DNA of 64,000 nucleotides from Bacillota bacterium (lineage in GTDB: Bacteria; Bacillota; Clostridia; UBA1381; UMGS1253): contig JAKJBW010000007.1 in the NCBI GenBank assembly GCA_022706785.1, positions 25,599-89,598 of the forward strand, read 5' to 3'. A model generated the notes under the pieces. That model was not told where the DNA came from. It saw only the letters and a list, made by a program, of their open reading frames with translations, and searched no databases. Below, piece after piece: positions 15,246 through 51,955 of the stretch. The position numbers and the translations under genes are program-made. Numbering within the stretch: position 1 is the stretch's first letter; each line of letters begins with the position of its first letter.

Positions 15246-15332
15246 GCCGGTGTGATGGAATTGGCAGACGTGCTGGACTCAAAATCCAGTGGTAGCGATA
15301 CCGTACCGGTTCGACCCCGGTCACCGGCACCA
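15246..15332 (+). tRNA. tRNA-Leu (anticodon CAA)
   Basis: Acceptor GCCGGTG / CACCGGC, anticodon loop CT-CAA-AA, long variable arm, GGTTCGA T-loop, encoded CCA. Confidence 0.9.
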
Positions 15333-24987: not shown

Positions 24988-25074
24988 GGAGAGGTGTCCG
25001 AGTGGTTTAAGGAGCTGGTCTTGAAAACCAGTGACTCGAAAGAGCCAAGAGTTCGAATCTCTTCCTCTCCGCCA
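24988..25074 (+). tRNA. tRNA-Ser (anticodon TGA)
   Basis: GGAGAGG / CCTCTCC acceptor, loop CT-TGA-AA, long variable arm, GTTCGAATC, encoded CCA. Confidence 0.9.
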
Positions 25075-25101: not shown

Positions 25102-25193
25102 GGAGAAGTACTCAAGTAGGTCGAAGAGGTGCCCCTGCTAAGGGTATAGGTCGTGAAAGCGGCGCGAGGGTTCGAATCCCTCCTTCTCCGCCA
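25102..25193 (+). tRNA. tRNA-Ser (anticodon GCT)
   Basis: GGAGAAG / CTTCTCC acceptor, loop CT-GCT-AA, long variable arm, GGTTCGAATCC, encoded CCA. Confidence 0.9.
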
Positions 25194-29621: not shown

Positions 29622-30875
29622 ATGAAAAACAAAAAATTACTTGCTATGATGGCAAAACGAAACGAACTGAAAACACAGGCACAGAGACTGCTTGACGCGG
29701 CACAAAAAGTGGGACGCCCGCTCACTAACGCAGAGCGCGAAACGCTGGAGGGGCTGAAAGTTAAAATCGAGCAATGGGACGACACTATCAAGGAAATGGT
29801 AACTCTTTGGGAGGATGGCACACCGAGCGGCGCGCCAAATGGTGGTAACTCCCGTAAATTCACCAGCTTTGGCGAACAACTCCACGCGATATATAACGCC
29901 GCCAAGCCGGAGCGTTCCGCAATGGACGCGCGGTTGTTTAACGGGGCGAGCGGCGCGGGCGAAAGTGTTCCTTCGGACGGTGGGTTTTTAGTGCAGAGCG
30001 ATTTTGCGGCAGGACTTTTAAAGCTAACGTATGAAACAGGAATACTCGCGGCGAGATGTAAAAAAATACCGATTTCAAGCGGCGCGAATGGAGTAAAAAT
30101 CAACGCGCTGGACGACGACTCCCGCGACAACGGGGCAAGGTGGGGCGGCATACAAGCCTTTTGGACTGGCGAGGCGGACGAGTTGACTGCCTCAAAGCCG
30201 AAATTCCGTCGAATGGAATTAACGCTGAAAAAGCTAGCAGGCTTATGCTACACCACCGATGAACTTTTAAGCGACACGATGGCGCTTGAAAGTGTAATCG
30301 CGCAGGGCTTTGCCGAGGAATTTGGGTTCAAAATGGACGACGTTATACTGAACGGCACGGGGACGAACCAGCCGCTCGGCATTCTCAAAAGTAACGGTCT
30401 GGTAACGGTGGCGAAAGAAACCGACCAAGCGGACAAAATCACAGTTGATAATATAACAAAAATGTGGGCGCGATGCTGGGGACGGAGCCGTAACAATTCG
30501 GCGTGGTACATAAACCAAGAATTAGAACCGTACCTTTATGCGCTAAAAATCGGCGACGCGCCCGTGTATATTCCCGCAGGCGGGCTTTCCGCGTCGCCGT
30601 ACGGCTCAATATTTGGTCGCCCAGTAATTCCGATTGAGCAATGCCCGGGGGTGGGCGAGAAGGGCGATATTATCCTTGCCGACTTGTCGCAATATCTACT
30701 TGTTGACAAGGGCGGAATTAACGCTGCGTCGTCAATTCACGTTAGGTTTTTGTATGACGAAAACGTGTTTAGATTTACCTATCGCGTGGATGGTCAGCCG
30801 ATTTGGAACGCACCTATCACTCCGTACAAGGGCGCGGGTACATTGTCGCCGTTTGTAACGCTGGCGGCAAGGTAG
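29622..30875 (+). CDS. Phage major capsid protein, HK97 family
   Basis: 417 aa. AAGGAGG SD. N-terminal coiled-coil delta-like region (LTNAERETLEGLKVKIEQW). Typical HK97-family body (GGFLVQSDFA, LAGLCYTTDELL, TNQPLGIL). Confidence 0.8.
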   Translation: MKNKKLLAMMAKRNELKTQAQRLLDAAQKVGRPLTNAERETLEGLKVKIEQWDDTIKEMVTLWEDGTPSGAPNGGNSRKFTSFGEQLHAIYNAAKPERSAMDARLFNGASGAGESVPSDGGFLVQSDFAAGLLKLTYETGILAARCKKIPISSGANGVKINALDDDSRDNGARWGGIQAFWTGEADELTASKPKFRRMELTLKKLAGLCYTTDELLSDTMALESVIAQGFAEEFGFKMDDVILNGTGTNQPLGILKSNGLVTVAKETDQADKITVDNITKMWARCWGRSRNNSAWYINQELEPYLYALKIGDAPVYIPAGGLSASPYGSIFGRPVIPIEQCPGVGEKGDIILADLSQYLLVDKGGINAASSIHVRFLYDENVFRFTYRVDGQPIWNAPITPYKGAGTLSPFVTLAAR

Positions 30876-31604: not shown

Positions 31605-31676
31605 TGCTGAAAAACCTTGATTTCCACAGTGTTTGAGAGTAAGCTGTCAACACTAAGGAAGGGGGTGTTTAGCAAT

Positions 31677-32990
31677 ATGGAACGAATAATAACGCAAGTA
31701 ACGCCGCAGGCAATACACCTTGCGGCACCACAATCAAAGCGTGTAGCCGCCTATGCGAGAGTATCGAGCGGCAAGGACGCAATGCTGCACAGCCTGTCGG
31801 CACAAGTAAGCCATTACAGCGGATATATCCAAAGGCAACGCGGCTGGCAGTATGTGGGCGTATATGTGGATGAAGCCGTTACCGGGACAAAGGATTCACG
31901 GGCGGGATTCAAAGAAATGATCGGGGATTGCCGTGCCGGGAAGGTTGATATGATTATAACCAAATCAATCACACGCTTTGCGCGAAATACGGTTACTCTT
32001 TTGAATACCGTCCGCGAATTAAAGCTGCTGGGAATTGACATATTTTTTGAAAAAGAAAATATCCACTCAATGAGCGGGGATGGTGAGATTATGCTTACCA
32101 TCCTCGCTTCATACGCGCAGGAAGAAAGCCGGAGCGTTTCGGAAAATTGCAAATGGCGCATAAGAAAACGGTTTGAAAAAGGCGAGCTTGTGAACTTGCG
32201 GTTTTTGTATGGTTACGATATTAAAAAGAGCGTAATCGAAATTGACCCGGAGCAGGCGGAAATCGTCCGCGTGATTTTTGACGACTATATCGGCGGCATG
32301 GGCGGAGTGTTAATTGCACAAAAGCTAAATGAGGCGGGTATTCCGTCATTTTTCGGCGCACGCTGGAGCGCATCCCGTATTCTTGACATTATCAAAAACG
32401 AGAAGTACATCGGCGATTCGCTGGGACAAAAATCCTTTGTTGCCGACCACTTGACAAAGAAAACCGTCCGTAATATTGGGCAATTACCGCAATATTACGC
32501 CGAGAATGTACTCCCTGCCATTATCGACGCGGCGACCTTCGAGGCGGCGCAGGACGTTATGGCGGGGCGGCGGGAGCATTTCAACGCCAAAGACACCAGC
32601 GCGAACCGTTACCCGCTCACGGGGAAAATCCTGTGCGGGAATTGCGGAAAAAAATTCAAGCGCAAAAAAGGCGTCGGGTGTTTCTATTGGCAATGTTCCA
32701 CCTTTTTACAGGATGGCAAGGCGTACTGCCCCGCCAAGCAAATACCCGAAGGGACGCTGTACGCGGCAACTGCCGAGGCATTAGGACTGGCGGAATTTGA
32801 CGCGGCTGTATTTGCGGAGCATATCGCGGAAATACGGGTGCCGGAGCATAACAAGCTGGTATTTGTATTTTATGACGGACGGACGTTGGAGCGCGAATGG
32901 CAAGACCGCTCCCGGCGCGAAAGCTGGACGGAGAAAATGCGGCAAGCTGCGCGGGAACACGCGCTCAGAGGACAAAGAAAATTAGATTAG
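31677..32990 (+). CDS. Large serine recombinase 1
   Basis: Start at ATG 31677 (AAGGAAGGGGG SD). VAAYARVSSGKD catalytic-Ser motif, ITKSITRFARNT, recombinase domain, Cys4 zinc ribbon CGNCGKKF...CSTF. Confidence 0.85.
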   Translation: MERIITQVTPQAIHLAAPQSKRVAAYARVSSGKDAMLHSLSAQVSHYSGYIQRQRGWQYVGVYVDEAVTGTKDSRAGFKEMIGDCRAGKVDMIITKSITRFARNTVTLLNTVRELKLLGIDIFFEKENIHSMSGDGEIMLTILASYAQEESRSVSENCKWRIRKRFEKGELVNLRFLYGYDIKKSVIEIDPEQAEIVRVIFDDYIGGMGGVLIAQKLNEAGIPSFFGARWSASRILDIIKNEKYIGDSLGQKSFVADHLTKKTVRNIGQLPQYYAENVLPAIIDAATFEAAQDVMAGRREHFNAKDTSANRYPLTGKILCGNCGKKFKRKKGVGCFYWQCSTFLQDGKAYCPAKQIPEGTLYAATAEALGLAEFDAAVFAEHIAEIRVPEHNKLVFVFYDGRTLEREWQDRSRRESWTEKMRQAAREHALRGQRKLD

Positions 32991-33003
32991 GGGGTTTTGA
33001 CTT

Positions 33004-34614
33004 ATGCCAGCAAAAACGGCAACAATAGAAAAACGGGTACGGTATATTCCCGCCGTGGATAATCTCGCGCGGGTGCCGTTCAGTACGGAGTACGTCAAAA
33101 GACGCACGGCTGCTTATGCCCGCGTATCTACCGACGAGGAAGAACAGCTAAACAGCTATGAGGCGCAAGTTCAGTATTATACTGAATATATACAGTCAAA
33201 CGACGAATGGGAATTTGCGGGTATGTACGCGGATAAAGACCGCTCCGGCACCACAACTAAACGCCGGGATGATTTTAACCGTATGATAAAGGACGCGCAG
33301 GAGGGCAAAATTGATTTTATTATTACAAAGTCCGTTTCCCGGTTTGCCCGGAATACGGTTGACACTTTAACGACGGTGCGGCAATTAAAGGAAAAAGGCG
33401 TCGAGGTGTATTTTGAAAAAGAGAATATTTACACGCTGGATAGTAAGGGCGAGCTTCTTATAACTATTATGTCGAGCCTCGCCCAAGAGGAAAGCCGCTC
33501 CATATCCGAAAATGTGACGTGGGGGCAGCGTAAGCGCATGGCGGACGGAAAAGTGAGCCTGCCTTACAAACAATTCCTCGGATATGAAAAGGGCAAGGAC
33601 GGTTTGCCGAAAATTGTGGACGCCGAAGCGAAAATAGTGCGGCGCATTTACCGCCTGTTTCTATACGGCAAAGCCCCTGCTACAATCGCCGCCTTACTAA
33701 CGGTGGACGGCATACCTACTCCGTCCGGCAAGCAGGAATGGCGGGCGCAGACGGTTATTAGTATTCTTACAAACGAGAAATACAAGGGCGACGCGCTATT
33801 GCAGAAAAGCTACACGGTGGATTTCCTTACCAAGAAAAAGAAGGTAAACGAGGGCGAGGTTCCGCAATACTACGTCGAACAAAGCCATCCCGCTATTATC
33901 GAGCGGGAAATATTTGACCTCGTACAACAAGAATGGAAACAGCGCAAAGCGTCCGGCAAACAGTCAAGCTCGGTTCATCCATTTTCGGGTAGAATATTCT
34001 GCGGCGACTGCGGCGACGGGTACGGCTCTAAAATATGGCACAGTAACAGCAAATACCGCCGCGAGGTGTGGTCTTGCAACGGCAAGCACTATGGCGGCAA
34101 AAAGTGCCAAACACCACGCCTAACCAACGAAGAAATACAAACGGCGTTCGTAAACGCCTTTAACGGCTTGATAGACCACAAAACCGAGATAATGAAAGCA
34201 TACGGGGAAATATGCGGCATATTGACCGACACCGCCGCTATTGACGCCGAACGCGAGGAATTGCAGCGGGAATGCGACGTTGTAATGGAATTACTCCGAA
34301 AATGTATTGAAGAAAACGCGCATACCTCGCTTAATCAGGACGAATACCGCCAGCGGTACGAGGGTTATACGGCGCGGTTTGAAACCGCCCGGAACAAGCT
34401 GGTGGAGCTTGACGCCGAACGGCTGGCGCGTATCGCCAAACGCGCAAATATCACGCTGTTTTTGGAAACGCTGGAACAGCGCGACGGGCTTATATCCGCC
34501 TTTGACGAGGAACTATGGTACATTACCGTGGAAAATGTAAAGGTGTACGACGGTAAGCGGCTGATATTTACCTTCAAGAACGGCGTAACGGTGGAAGTAC
34601 CCTCTACGAAGTAA
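33004..34614 (+). CDS. Large serine recombinase 2
   Basis: 536 aa. AAYARVSTDEEEQ, ITKSVSRFARNT, zinc ribbon CGDCGDGY...CNGKH, C-terminal coiled coil. Confidence 0.9.
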   Translation: MPAKTATIEKRVRYIPAVDNLARVPFSTEYVKRRTAAYARVSTDEEEQLNSYEAQVQYYTEYIQSNDEWEFAGMYADKDRSGTTTKRRDDFNRMIKDAQEGKIDFIITKSVSRFARNTVDTLTTVRQLKEKGVEVYFEKENIYTLDSKGELLITIMSSLAQEESRSISENVTWGQRKRMADGKVSLPYKQFLGYEKGKDGLPKIVDAEAKIVRRIYRLFLYGKAPATIAALLTVDGIPTPSGKQEWRAQTVISILTNEKYKGDALLQKSYTVDFLTKKKKVNEGEVPQYYVEQSHPAIIEREIFDLVQQEWKQRKASGKQSSSVHPFSGRIFCGDCGDGYGSKIWHSNSKYRREVWSCNGKHYGGKKCQTPRLTNEEIQTAFVNAFNGLIDHKTEIMKAYGEICGILTDTAAIDAEREELQRECDVVMELLRKCIEENAHTSLNQDEYRQRYEGYTARFETARNKLVELDAERLARIAKRANITLFLETLEQRDGLISAFDEELWYITVENVKVYDGKRLIFTFKNGVTVEVPSTK

Positions 34615-34705: not shown

Positions 34706-34734
34706 TTGAAAATTGCATAAATATGTGTTATAAT
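34706..34734 (+). promoter_or_regulatory. Strong sigma-A promoter heading the RT cassette
   Basis: TTGAAA, 17 nt, TGtTATAAT (extended -10). Confidence 0.55.
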
Positions 34735-34948
34735 AATTTTACCAGTGTAGAAATAGTCAGATTCACTCCCATTTGGCTCACATTTATTGTGGGCGGCGTT
34801 GTGCCTCAAGGCATGAACGCATTTTTCTCCGGCGCACGCTCTCTCATGTTGTTTTAACACTTGCTAACACTAACGTGTTATGCAGTAGTGATGACAGTGT
34901 GATGATGTGTATGTGTATAAGATAAATCAATTTTATCGGGAGTTAGAT

Positions 34949-35256
34949 TGTGCTGGTGTTATCGGTATACGGCTATTATCTCTTTGTTATTAGAGGGTGC
35001 GGGAGACCCTCGACCGTTTTGGTTAGGGGCCAATAATAACAAGGAGGTGAAAACATCGTGAAGAAAGCGGATAGGCCTAATGTTACCATTAATATTTTTA
35101 ATGGTAACAAGATTTCTCTTGATGGCAAGTCATTGCTGCTAATTATAGTAGTAATTGTATGCCTAACACTGGTTGTATCGTTACGTAGTCCCGAACTGCA
35201 AGCTAATGTTGTCCGCTGGTTAATTAGCTTAGCAGAGAACTACTAACACCAGCACA
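34949..35256 (+). ncRNA. Candidate retron msr-msd-like structured RNA closed by a1/a2-like inverted repeats
   Basis: 13-bp perfect IR: tgtgctggtgtta at 34949-34961 and taacaccagcaca at 35244-35256. Several internal hairpins. Lies directly upstream of the RT. Boundaries are inferred. Confidence 0.4.
35058..35246 (+). CDS. 62-aa predicted single-pass membrane peptide; may instead be non-coding
   Basis: AAGGAGGTGA SD 7 nt before GTG. Hydrophobic core LLLIIVVIVCLTLVV. However, it lies wholly inside the a1/a2 bracket and contains a perfect 12-bp hairpin. Confidence 0.4.
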   Translation: MKKADRPNVTINIFNGNKISLDGKSLLLIIVVIVCLTLVVSLRSPELQANVVRWLISLAENY

Positions 35257-35280
35257 CTAAAATAATGAGGTGTATGCCTT

Positions 35281-36240
35281 TTGATATATAATAATTGTAA
35301 GCTATATCAGTTACAATCAAAAAGAGTATTGAAATATCTGTTGGGGATTACGGATACAAAAATGTTTAATCAAGCATACGTGGCGTCTTTAATAAAGCCT
35401 TATATTGACTCCAACGGAAAGCCGCGTATTATTGAACCACCTTCTTATGGGTTAAAACAAATACAGGCACGAATCAAAAAACTTCTTTATGCGGTTGTGG
35501 TACCAGAAAATGTGTTTTCCGGTATTAAAGGCAGATCATATGCCCAAAACGCAGAAATTCACAAAGGAAATAACTATACATATAAAATAGATTTAACAGC
35601 TTTCTTTCCGAGTATTTCACGAGAAAAAGTTTATGCCTTTTTCAAAAATGAAATGCAAACCGCTCCAGACATAGCGGAGTTTTTGACGAATGTTACAACG
35701 GTAAACATAGATTTATCTGACGTTCAAAACATAGATGATATAAATAAATTTCTTGCAGATAAGAAAATTAAAACTCGCAACCACCTCATATCGGGTTCAC
35801 CGACAAGTCAAATATTATCATATATGGTCAATCATAAGATGTTTAATGAACTTCAAGATTTGGCAAGTAAGAATCAAGCTGTTATGACAATATATGTGGA
35901 TGATGTGGTGTTCTCTTCTAAAAACAAAATATCCAGTGACTTTAAATATGCCATTAACGCAATTGTTAAAAAACATGAGTATAAAATATCAAAGCATAAG
36001 GTTAAAGGGTATTCCAAAAATTATCCTAAACTGATAACAGGGGCAATTATTGATAAAAATGGAAATATGAGAGTCAAAAACTCATTAAGATATAAAATTA
36101 TTATGGCATTTAACGAATCTTTAAAAAATCCTGATGATCTAGAAATTAGAAAACGACTAAGAGGACTTGTTACAGCAGCAAGGCAGGTTGAGCCAAATGC
36201 ATATCCAGAGATACGAAAATATGCATTTAAAAAATTATAA
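35281..36240 (+). CDS. Retron-type reverse transcriptase
   Basis: 319 aa. TTG start with GAGGTG SD 8 nt upstream. PRIIEPPSYGLKQIQ, GRSYAQNAEIH (NAxxH), IDLTAFFPSI, ISGSPTSQILS, IYVDDVVFS (YxDD), LITGAII (xTG). Confidence 0.8.
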   Translation: MIYNNCKLYQLQSKRVLKYLLGITDTKMFNQAYVASLIKPYIDSNGKPRIIEPPSYGLKQIQARIKKLLYAVVVPENVFSGIKGRSYAQNAEIHKGNNYTYKIDLTAFFPSISREKVYAFFKNEMQTAPDIAEFLTNVTTVNIDLSDVQNIDDINKFLADKKIKTRNHLISGSPTSQILSYMVNHKMFNELQDLASKNQAVMTIYVDDVVFSSKNKISSDFKYAINAIVKKHEYKISKHKVKGYSKNYPKLITGAIIDKNGNMRVKNSLRYKIIMAFNESLKNPDDLEIRKRLRGLVTAARQVEPNAYPEIRKYAFKKL

Positions 36241-36313
36241 ATACAGCAGTTATTTTTTAATATGTAACGCTCTTTGTTGTATGCAGTAATTTTTTTTTGG
36301 GGGGGGTGATGCA

Positions 36314-36895
36314 ATGGAAAAAGGGGATAATCGCGCAAGGTTCAATGAAGTAAGGAAAATGCTTTTTGCAGAGAATATTGATACCAAAAAACCTTGTATA
36401 TTTCTGTCACATAGGAGTTTAGATAAAGAAATGGTAAGAACAATAGCGGATTATATTGCCGAGCAAGGTATAGATTATTATTTAGACGAGGAAGATCCTG
36501 CCCTACAAGAAGCCGATAAAAATGAGGATGACCAAGCAACTGTTGATTGTATAAAAGAAGGCATTGGATTATCTTCGCACATATTATGTGTTTTATCTTA
36601 TAATACAGTCAGTTCCTGGTGGGTTCCTTTTGAAGTGGGATATGCAGATTGTTTAAAAAAGAAAGTGGCATCTTTAAAAATAAAAGATTTATCTGATAAA
36701 GAGATACCTGCATTTCTGAGAATCTATGAATGCCTTGCCGGAATTAAAGAGTTTAACAAATACCTTGTAGGAATATCAGATCCATACGGTGGACTTTTCT
36801 CAAAGTACAATAAGCAACAGAATGGAACGACTTCTCCTTCTGTTGAGATAGCATACACTCAAAATCACCCACTATATGATACGCTTGATGAATAG
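36314..36895 (+). CDS. TIR-like (TIR/NDT-superfamily) effector protein
   Basis: 193 aa. CIFLSHRSLDKEMVRTIADYIAEQGIDYYLDE and ILCVLSYNTVSSWWVPFEVGYA match the TIR_2-style pattern (FxSH..D ... S.W...E). Assigned from motifs only. Confidence 0.6.
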   Translation: MEKGDNRARFNEVRKMLFAENIDTKKPCIFLSHRSLDKEMVRTIADYIAEQGIDYYLDEEDPALQEADKNEDDQATVDCIKEGIGLSSHILCVLSYNTVSSWWVPFEVGYADCLKKKVASLKIKDLSDKEIPAFLRIYECLAGIKEFNKYLVGISDPYGGLFSKYNKQQNGTTSPSVEIAYTQNHPLYDTLDE

Positions 36896-36938
36896 GTATA
36901 ATTAAATTAGTCTTCATCTATTTATATTACCGGGGAAA

Positions 36939-37379
36939 ATGACTATGAGTGACTATATCGAAAAAGGGAAGCAAATTATGAACGATTTTACTAAAACATC
37001 AAGTTTTACACGCAAATTGGTATGTGTCAATATTGTATCGTCTGATCCAAAACGGCTCGCCGATTTCTACCGAAACGTTTTAGGTGCAGACATCAACGAG
37101 GAACATGGTGCTCCGCGCCGCATTGAAATATGGTTCGGAGAAAGAGACGAAAACACCGTTTGTATTGTTGTAAATTATGAAGAAGGATTTACGCCGCAGA
37201 CCGTTACCGCCTGTCAGGGATTTGAGTTTCGCGTGACAGACGTTGACGCGGAATACAAACGGATACGAGATTTGGATATTGATGTAAAAGAACCGCCAAA
37301 AGATGTATCTTGGGGTTATCGTTTTTTCAATATCAAAGATCCGGACGGTAACGGTATTGATATTGTTCAAGCTTTATAA
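36939..37379 (+). CDS. VOC-family (glyoxalase / bleomycin-resistance-like) protein
   Basis: 146 aa. LADFYRNVLGA ... FEFRVTDVDAEYKRI ... GYRFFNIKDPDGNGIDIVQ. Confidence 0.7.
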   Translation: MTMSDYIEKGKQIMNDFTKTSSFTRKLVCVNIVSSDPKRLADFYRNVLGADINEEHGAPRRIEIWFGERDENTVCIVVNYEEGFTPQTVTACQGFEFRVTDVDAEYKRIRDLDIDVKEPPKDVSWGYRFFNIKDPDGNGIDIVQAL

Positions 37380-37497
37380 GGGCATATAGGAAGTATAAGC
37401 ATTTTTCTATATTCCCGTTAAAAAGTGTACCCCCTAACACAACGAAATGCACCCCATAAAAGAAAAATACACCCCATAATAAAAACTTTTCGCGTTA

Positions 37498-37526
37498 TTG
37501 ACTTTCTCGTTAAATTGTATTAAAAT
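37498..37526 (+). promoter_or_regulatory. Promoter-like element (TTGACT, 17 nt, TAAAAT)
   Basis: Good -35 and -10 spacing. The only downstream element is the hairpin terminator about 25 nt later. Confidence 0.4.
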
Positions 37527-37547
37527 TTGTTGCATTAGACAATCAGT

Positions 37548-37580
37548 AATGGCGATTCTTTGGAATCGCCATTATTTTTT
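37548..37580 (+). terminator. Strong intrinsic terminator
   Basis: aatggcgattc / gaatcgccatt 11-bp stem, tttg loop, then ATTTTTT. Confidence 0.65.
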
Positions 37581-37711
37581 ACCTCAACTCTCCGCCATTT
37601 TACAATGAACCGGGTTTGCCGGTTCACTAAGGGAAGTTCGCGGCTGCCCAAAACTTAAGCGCAGAGCATAGTTTAAGGAAACTTGGGCTATGCTCTTTTT
37701 CTTTTCAGCAT

Positions 37712-51762: not shown

Positions 51763-51784
51763 AGAGTTGTATATGATATACCCA

Positions 51785-51955
51785 TGTAAAAGGCAAAGCA
51801 TATGAAAGTATGTGACGCAAAGCTATAGGGCCTAAAGATGATGAATCTATGGCAGCCAGTTGCCGGCTAATAAGAAGTGCTGACAGGATAGCTGTATCCT
51901 TATGCCTGTTATTAAAGGACAACTGATTTGTTTCGGTTGTCCTTTTTGTTTTTCA
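51785..51955 (+). promoter_or_regulatory. c-di-GMP-I (GEMM-I) riboswitch with a terminator expression platform
   Basis: aGGCAAAGCatatGAAAgtatGtGACGCAAAGCtatagGGCCTAAAg parallels the Vc2 aptamer segments GGCAAACC-(GNRA hairpin)-GGGACGCAAAGCC-..GGCCTAAAC. Terminator aaaggacaac / gttgtccttt plus TTGTTTTT at 51915-51953. Confidence 0.7.

Follow-up and report, generated by a model that had tools for sequence, protein, structure and literature searches.

A Clostridia locus of structured RNA, embedded small protein and reverse transcriptase is probably a type VI-kind retron without the usual HTH gene

Type VI retrons were defined as clade 3 reverse transcriptases (RTs) accompanied by a Cro/C1 helix-turn-helix (HTH) protein and small auxiliary proteins (Mestre 2020, PMC7736814). 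In Retron-Vpa2, msr-msd and a small toxic protein (SP) reside on one 'hybrid RNA' (hyRNA), in which the ribosome-binding site (RBS) of SP lies in a stem, inverted repeats (IRs) tie the 3' end to the first arm and 7-nt direct repeats connect msd with the riboregulator; multicopy single-stranded DNA (msDNA) induced by phage derepresses translation of SP, a catalytic RT is needed for defence and HTH represses reverse transcription (Zhang 2025, bioRxiv 10.1101/2025.10.22.683967). Retron-Sen3 has a conserved IR1-IR2 pairing around SP with IR2 past the stop codon, a variable long stem-loop (SL3) and covariation within the SP coding region; its HTH is an antitoxin that neutralises SP, and about 78% of type VI entries carry HTH (Garcia-Rodriguez 2026, bioRxiv 10.64898/2026.04.27.721009). 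Here, we describe a locus at positions 34706-36240 of a 64,000-nt stretch of DNA from a Bacillota bacterium of the class Clostridia (contig JAKJBW010000007.1; in the following, the window). With a probability of roughly 0.7 it represents a type VI-kind retron that is complete except for the usual HTH, its effector is a small protein embedded in the retron RNA, and the TIR-domain gene downstream of the RT is an unlinked neighbour.

An earlier note on this DNA, made from its letters, had pointed to a promoter, about 300 nt of structured non-coding leader, an RT, a TIR-like open reading frame (ORF) and an AT-rich composition, and had read them as a retron-type defence cassette carried by a mobile element in a Clostridia-class host. 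All of these features are present where it had seen them, and the position beside serine recombinases in a Clostridia-type genome agrees with the proposed cargo. The leader, about 317 nt long, is indeed structured, but the stretch up to the RT is not purely non-coding: a 62-amino-acid ORF with a strong RBS lies within it. The note also saw no match between this layout and a known retron. This part did not hold, since a non-coding RNA (ncRNA) with an embedded small ORF followed by an RT is the type VI 'hyRNA' arrangement minus the HTH gene (PMC7736814; bioRxiv 10.1101/2025.10.22.683967; bioRxiv 10.64898/2026.04.27.721009). The HTH-less, type VI-like lineage of gut Clostridia described here is a variant of this published architecture, and its anatomy matches point by point save for the HTH.

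The RT is most similar to the RT_VI model of PADLOC (3e-72, 241 bits, full length), with the runner-up at 126 bits; its top PADLOC matches are retron RT models only, and RT_IV and RT_V are not among the best 25 matches listed. Pfam RVT_1 matches the protein, a sequence search of the PDB returned retron RTs exclusively, and all strong NCBIfam matches are retron RT models. By its score in this hidden Markov model (HMM) comparison, the RT falls into the type VI lineage (clade 3). Canonical type VI RTs that do have an HTH partner, from Burkholderia phage KS5 and from Ligilactobacillus and Staphylococcus plasmids, reach 260-279 bits on the same RT_VI model, and their upstream neighbours match HTH_VI with 90-117 bits. 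The protein has the size of about 300 amino acids and the NAxxH, YxDD and VTG-type motifs expected of a retron RT, and the six peptide motifs quoted in the earlier note are all found in its translation. The family shows no variation at N90, A91, H94, Y205, D207, D208, T253 and G254; its consensus VTG reads ITG in the window RT, and the catalytic residues (YVDD, NAxxH) are retained across more than 150 loci. An identity as DRT/UG, abortive infection (Abi), group II intron or diversity-generating retroelement (DGR) RT was rejected, since the strong PADLOC and NCBIfam matches are all retron (group II, 18 bits against a cut-off of 300). Translation starts at a TTG, 7 nt after the RBS GAGGTG. The region around this start (...GAGGTG...CCTTTT) is alike in many relatives, and the database entry of the RT (P0001) has 292 instead of 319 amino acids; apparently, gene callers often shorten the RT because of the TTG start and the similar start region.

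Altogether, 204 related RT loci were compared, of which 66 came from reference genomes, 6 from exact look-up, 52 from viral contigs and 80 from metagenome contigs; 151 of them are close (RT at least 49% identical) and 53 are distant. What is conserved is the unit of structured RNA, SP and RT, the RT being strictly co-inherited with RNA and SP, whereas the gene 3' of the RT varies in size, strand and spacing. The module is always found on mobile elements in the relatives; it adjoins TnpV, serine recombinases or other genes and is often the last gene ahead of housekeeping genes. The close lineage is widespread; its hosts are gut and rumen Clostridia, and some of the loci are on viral contigs. 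As controlled by tblastn, 41 of the 53 distant loci have an HTH_VI gene immediately upstream of the RT, but none of the 151 close ones has one upstream of it. In the window itself, tblastn with three HTH_VI proteins found nothing in all 64 kb, a Cro/C1-type HTH (cl2_1 or HTH_VI) is not encoded next to the RT, and none can be hidden between SP and RT because the gap of 34 nt leaves no room.

Where the upstream sequence is long enough, practically every close relative has an ORF of 59-79 amino acids with a strong RBS directly 5' of the RT; the RT follows after 31-39 nt in Clostridia-clade loci, and after 73-78 nt in six of eight more distant loci (39-44% identity; L066-L072). A homolog search with SP gave only 7 proteins, and the family was characterised from the ORFs in related loci. 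Its members have a basic N terminus (MKKADKP), a short Asn-rich segment, a hydrophobic helix of 19-23 residues with a mean Kyte-Doolittle value of 2.4-3.4 over 19 residues, and a conserved C-terminal tail, CCPELLADFVRWIIS, which reads RSPELQANVVRWLIS in the window. Judged from these features, SP is probably a small single-pass membrane toxin and the conserved effector of the retron. In a distant group from Bacilli and 'Tenericutes' (L064-L072; RT 39-44% identical), SP and RT are also present without HTH. There, SP is unrelated to that of the Clostridia clade and comes in two variants, and six of the eight loci analysed have a different bracketing inverted repeat of 14 bp (AATTGTTAATTATT / AATAATTAACAATT). 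This suggests that SP and RNA are exchanged as modules while the architecture stays the same.

The RNA is far more stable than expected from its composition. Positions 34741-35275 fold with a minimum free energy (MFE) of -176 kcal/mol, compared to -140.8 ± 6.1 in shuffled sequences (z = -5.8; none of 100 shuffles as good), and the first arm alone (34757-34950) has a z of -4.0. The 5' segment of this arm pairs with repeat 1 and closes an msr-msd-like structure; it is complementary to repeat 2 as well. Behind a near-invariant TGG (34774-34776) follow two short hairpins, H1 and H2, with compensatory changes in 14 of 17 pairs, and then a long imperfect hairpin whose sequence and length are hypervariable among loci and which we take as the candidate template for reverse transcription. 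A second hairpin, with a smaller one inside it at 35008-35029, hides the Shine-Dalgarno sequence of SP, and IR1 and IR2 bracket the SP gene. Compensatory variants of IR1/IR2 occur in relatives (TGTGCTGG/CCAGCACA, TGTACTGG/CCAGTACA and TGCGCTGG/CCAGCGCA). Leader identity was also sought in Rfam, with no family at gathering thresholds; the sole match below them, malK-I, has 27 bits where 60 are required and was put down to chance.

Comparative data agree with the fold. From an alignment of 46 distinct related loci, RNAalifold independently recovered the IR1/IR2 stem, the RBS hairpin and the two 5' hairpins, and in addition a long-range helix into the SP coding region and helices in the 3' half of SP; the coding region of SP is placed within covarying helices and its RBS lies within a conserved stem. 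In the consensus of 65 pairs, 95.8% of the cells are paired, compared to 32-48% with the partners slid. Double-sided changes are seen in 42 of the 65 pairs, compared to 20 ± 2.3 in shuffles (0 of 500 reached the observed value) and 16-20 after sliding, and the covariation score is 0.334 compared to 0.05-0.08 in the controls. By fold and covariation, the RT is preceded by a structured ncRNA closed by inverted repeats, as in retrons, and as in type VI retrons the SP ORF is between ncRNA and RT, in a hybrid RNA with sequestered RBS and IR1/IR2. The element of repeat 1 (consensus GGGAAGTC) recurs as repeat 2 in the loop of the RBS hairpin, and the 5' segment and both repeats change jointly by lineage: GACTTC is combined with two copies of GGGAAGTC, ACTCCC with two of GGGGAG, and a further lineage has GGGATGTC twice. 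Within a lineage, the Watson-Crick run has a mean of 5.4-5.9, compared to 3.5-3.8 across lineages.

In the anatomy proposed here, a single promoter gives rise to a hybrid RNA of about 520 nt, with the RT gene following 34 nt further. Its first part is the msr-msd-like arm, composed of the closing stem, the two conserved hairpins and the long hypervariable hairpin; its second the hairpin that buries the Shine-Dalgarno sequence of the 62-amino-acid SP; and its third the SP coding region, tied to the first arm by the 13-bp IR1/IR2 stem. By analogy with Retron-Vpa2, one may envisage that SP is, at rest, transcribed with its translation switched off. Upon phage infection, single-stranded DNA made by the RT from the variable hairpin would build up and open the riboregulator hairpin via a short sequence complementary to the repeat in the loop. 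SP would then be translated and damage the membrane, leading to abortive infection. Derepression by msDNA is suggested by the analogy to Vpa2 together with the co-varying repeat elements.

A number of points weigh against this reading. We infer msDNA synthesis and its template, the translational derepression, the toxicity and membrane action of SP and the anti-phage role by analogy. In the candidate msd hairpin, the 5' arm is rich in C and A, the 3' arm in G and U, and G-U pairs are numerous; a DNA copy would, therefore, fold much worse than the RNA, unlike the classical msd stems of retrons. SP has no match in Pfam, PADLOC or NCBIfam and no detectable similarity in sequence to anything annotated. 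The placement of the RT in type VI is one by HMM scores. Both type VI retrons characterised so far depend on their HTH, so that a system without it may work differently. Finally, RT, TIR and VOC genes share the strand, a low GC content and apparently a transcript, and a functional link between them is possible in this strain, although the comparison of loci lends it no support.

The TIR-like protein is a TIR protein by several measures, and the TIR/nucleoside deoxyribosyltransferase (NDT)-like fold anticipated by the earlier note was recovered. Pfam TIR_2 matches with 4e-10 (40.5 bits, cut-off 28) and PADLOC ThsB with 5e-18, and the best sequence match in the PDB is BcThsB (2e-9). The AlphaFold2 (AF2) model (pLDDT 86.6, pTM 0.85) retrieves ThsB, the B. 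cereus TIR, SPARTA, the SARM1 TIRs and NDTs in Foldseek. An SWWVPxExG motif with E107 (SWWVPFE in the window) is invariant in 27 family sequences and provides the catalytic-type Glu; the protein is a putative NADase or signal synthase. A ThsA, required in addition to ThsB for Thoeris, was not found in the adjacent genes, which are RT and VOC. The family is small (28 database clusters). Homologs precede the terminase gene of C. botulinum prophages; others are located in a phage, in prophage remnants or next to Hachiman, or adjoin a second ThsB-type TIR within a restriction/integrase island and beside CRISPR-Cas. In three loci (L074, L077 and L086), a conserved, unannotated protein of 157-161 amino acids is encoded beside the TIR homolog (54-59% identity among the three; L074:5591-6076, L077:3998-4468, L086:5593-6066), and a distant version of 219 amino acids with a transmembrane (TM) helix is present at L078:7741-8400. 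The 157-161-amino-acid protein has no match in Pfam or PADLOC, and some of the loci add a second ThsB-type TIR. TIR and this partner may constitute an uncharacterised two-gene defence module of phages and defence islands. The VOC/glyoxalase protein was considered as the family's usual partner and discarded, since it has no similarity to the 157-161-amino-acid protein. A T9 run followed by a G8 run at 36294-36310 overlaps the RBS of the TIR gene and is a candidate slip-strand tract; phase variation found no support, the tract being identical in L073, the only other copy.

The RT and TIR genes share the strand and a low GC content, they are spaced by 73 nt with neither terminator nor promoter in between, and RT-TIR fusions are known as type XII retrons (Mestre 2020, PMC7736814). 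Together with the TIR fold, the invariant Glu in SWWVPxE and weak matches of both proteins to the NCBIfam model Retron_TIR_antiphage, this could suggest a tripartite retron, a type XII retron split into two genes, in which the TIR would be an NAD-consuming effector under control of RT and msDNA. The earlier note had favoured the TIR as effector and had named the absence of linkage in homologous loci as the observation that would speak against it, and this is what was found: the flanks of the related RT loci contain no TIR homolog (0 of 72 and 0 of 132, that is 0 of 204), and none of the seven TIR homologs whose context was examined adjoins an RT. The only other copy of RT, TIR and VOC, L073, differs from the window by one synonymous single-nucleotide polymorphism; it is the same element and, therefore, no independent support for a link. 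VOC homologs are likewise missing beside the RT in all 151 close loci. Moreover, the RT falls outside the type XII clade (107 bits with RT-TIR_XII, 241 bits with RT_VI), the matches to Retron_TIR_antiphage (RT 93 bits, TIR 22 bits) are far below the cut-off of 600, the TIR is a separate ORF, and with SP a conserved candidate effector is already present within the RNA. A split type XII retron is very improbable in our view. TIR and VOC are, to judge from the sequences, strain-specific additions to the retron operon, and most likely the TIR is not the effector of the retron but an orphan defence gene of the ThsB-like type, independent of it, that came to occupy the same cargo slot.

According to a further explanation, the TIR is the surviving half of a Thoeris-like system or of the TIR and ~160-amino-acid partner pair, inert or decaying after loss of the partner, and next to the retron by coincidence in a defence island or cargo slot. 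The pairing seen in L074, L077 and L086, the distant TM version in L078 and the second ThsB-type TIR of some loci are in line with this, and so is the finding that the 157-161-amino-acid partner is absent from the whole 64-kb window and a ThsA-like gene from the adjacent genes. However, the TIR ORF is intact and has kept all invariant residues of the family, and its closest homologs, P0122 (53% identity) and P0127 (51%, from the family alignment), are also without partner, from which a solitary lifestyle seems normal for part of the family; a decaying remnant is possible but on the unlikely side. A different view of the retron itself would take structured RNA and SP as an addiction module of the mobile element, similar to type I toxin-antitoxin (TA) systems, in which the RT has no role mediated by msDNA or acts non-catalytically. 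SP does resemble small hydrophobic type I toxins in its size and single TM helix, its RBS is sequestered by mRNA structure, the module is confined to mobile elements and type VI retrons yield no detectable msDNA at rest (Zhang 2025, bioRxiv 10.1101/2025.10.22.683967). Against it stand the strict co-inheritance of the RT with RNA and SP, the preservation of YVDD and NAxxH and the conservation of the msr-msd-like arm with its hypervariable hairpin, and defence by Vpa2 does depend on a catalytic RT (same reference); we consider it quite unlikely.

The features of the locus are compiled in Table 1. The promoter, noted earlier as near-consensus, is the top-scoring site of the region in a promoter-pattern scan, in which promoter-like sites as a class are not enriched (17 found, 12.2 expected). 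Its extended -10 element (TGnTATAAT) is kept at the same alignment position in related loci (columns 43-56), and transcription likely starts around 34741. The AT-richness noticed earlier is seen in a GC content of 0.32-0.37 over 35000-36999, whereas the recombinase genes have 0.47-0.53 and nfnAB has 0.47-0.52. Neither a terminator-like hairpin nor a convincing promoter was found in the intergenic stretches between RT, TIR and VOC, and strong terminators are present only at 37545-37696; RT, TIR and VOC are, therefore, probably co-transcribed from the retron promoter in this strain.

Table 1 Features of the retron locus and its downstream genes in the window.
Feature	Position	Strand	Basis
Sigma-70-type promoter of the retron operon, TTGAAA-17-TGtTATAAT	34706..34734	+	11/12 consensus positions plus TG extension
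5' segment, a1-like, CAGATTCACTCCC	34758..34770	+	MFE pairing ACUCCC/GGGAGU; three-way covariation with both repeats
Two short conserved msr-like hairpins, H1 (34776-34794) and H2 (34796-34820)	34776..34820	+	RNAalifold consensus
Hypervariable long imperfect hairpin, candidate msd	34821..34936	+	Folds as long stem
Direct repeat copy 1, CGGGAGT, a2-like arm	34937..34950	+	Repeat and covariation analysis
IR1, 5' arm of long-range stem bracketing the SP gene	34949..34961	+	13-nt perfect inverted repeat, compensatory changes
Riboregulator hairpin hiding the SP Shine-Dalgarno sequence, stem 34980-34992 / 35034-35046	34980..35046	+	Inverted repeat and covariation
Direct repeat copy 2, CGGGAGAC	35000-35009	+	In loop of riboregulator hairpin
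SP, 62-aa small single-pass membrane protein, GTG start, RBS AAGGAGGTG, probable toxic effector	35058..35246	+	Conservation, hydropathy, family alignment
IR2, 3' arm of long-range stem, begins at SP stop codon	35244..35256	+	13-nt perfect inverted repeat with IR1, compensatory changes
Retron reverse transcriptase, type VI-like, 319 aa, TTG start	35281..36240	+	PADLOC RT_VI, Pfam RVT_1, PDB matches
Orphan ThsB-like TIR-domain protein, 193 aa	36314..36895	+	Pfam TIR_2, PADLOC ThsB, AF2 and Foldseek
VOC/glyoxalase-family protein, 146 aa, final gene ahead of the terminators	36939..37379	+	Pfam Glyoxalase, 6e-14
Two strong intrinsic terminators, likely end of the transcription unit	37545..37576 and 37663..37696	+	Terminator prediction

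In the region 37420-37700, downstream of the VOC gene, short repeats of the CACCCCATAA type (37422-37480) are followed by a promoter-like site at 37498-37526 and by the two terminators; this region may be a small RNA gene or the boundary of the island (att site). Directly upstream of the retron, two large serine recombinases of 457 and 536 amino acids (Resolvase, Recombinase and Zn_ribbon_recom domains) are encoded in tandem at 31617-34614, preceded by a capsid-like gene (29622-30875). Three tRNA genes further upstream (15246-15329, 24988-25071 and 25102-25190) possibly lie within or border a prophage-like element that ends with the recombinases. A c-di-GMP-I riboswitch is present at 51782-51867 (Rfam RF01051, 76 bits, above the gathering score).

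Since the lineage keeps hybrid RNA, toxin and RT without HTH, it would represent a minimal form made by nature, with nothing but RNA structure to hold the toxin in check. This makes the proposed riboregulator triggered by msDNA directly testable, and the three co-varying elements mark the sites for compensatory mutations. By the rules of PADLOC and DefenseFinder, a type VI call needs both RT and HTH; loci without HTH may, therefore, be under-called and the retrons of Clostridia under-counted. The TIR, in turn, is a caution that adjacency and co-transcription in one genome do not establish membership in a system. One could go further and speculate that the TIR was captured as a second effector under retron control or as a stand-in for the HTH and, in broader terms, that the HTH-less lineage gates its membrane toxin solely by strand exchange between RNA and msDNA, involving the 5' segment and repeats 1 and 2. 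This is improbable; if true for the TIR, the result would be a two-effector system of membrane toxin and NADase, a type VI/XII hybrid assembled in trans.

How does the locus compare with known systems? With the Thoeris protein ThsB (BcThsB 8btn, EcThsB 8wcf, ThsB-Tad3 9b7d), the TIR of the window shares the TIR/flavodoxin-like fold and the Glu in a WxxxE-type motif; unlike in Thoeris, there is no adjacent ThsA, and its family often pairs with a ~160-amino-acid protein that the window does not encode. Type XII retrons (RT with a fused C-terminal TIR_2; Mestre 2020, PMC7736814) also have RT and TIR on one strand, whereas the RT described here is of another clade and the TIR a separate ThsB-like ORF, a pairing kept in no relative. 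A small membrane-targeting effector is also found in type IV retrons (Retron-Eco6/Ec48, with a 2-TM effector); there it is a separate downstream gene and not part of the retron RNA as it is here, and the RT of the window is of type VI. Type I TA membrane toxins (Hok, Fst, TisB) combine a small membrane effector with translation locked by the mRNA leader, but differ by their antisense RNA, for which there is no counterpart here. The closest relatives are the type VI retrons Vpa2 and Sen3. Unlike these, the lineage of the window has no HTH and its SP abuts the RT (34 nt); the published type VI SPs are described as soluble-type folds of two or three helices whose C-terminal core is hydrophobic, whereas SP of the window, compared by description, is a single-pass membrane protein with a basic N terminus and a CCPELLADFVRW tail. 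The hosts are gut Clostridia instead of Proteobacteria and Bacteroidetes, and the RT is only 28-33% identical to phage-borne proteobacterial members. Common to all of them are an RT of the RT_VI family, an operon that opens with a structured ncRNA and the ORF of a (here probable) toxic SP in the same transcript, with its RBS sequestered in a stem and a bracketing long-range inverted repeat whose 3' arm is at or just past the SP stop codon. Shared as well are an SP coding region under selection for RNA structure, a long stem-loop that varies, short direct repeats conserved both in the first arm and in the loop of the riboregulator, and carriage on mobile elements and prophages.

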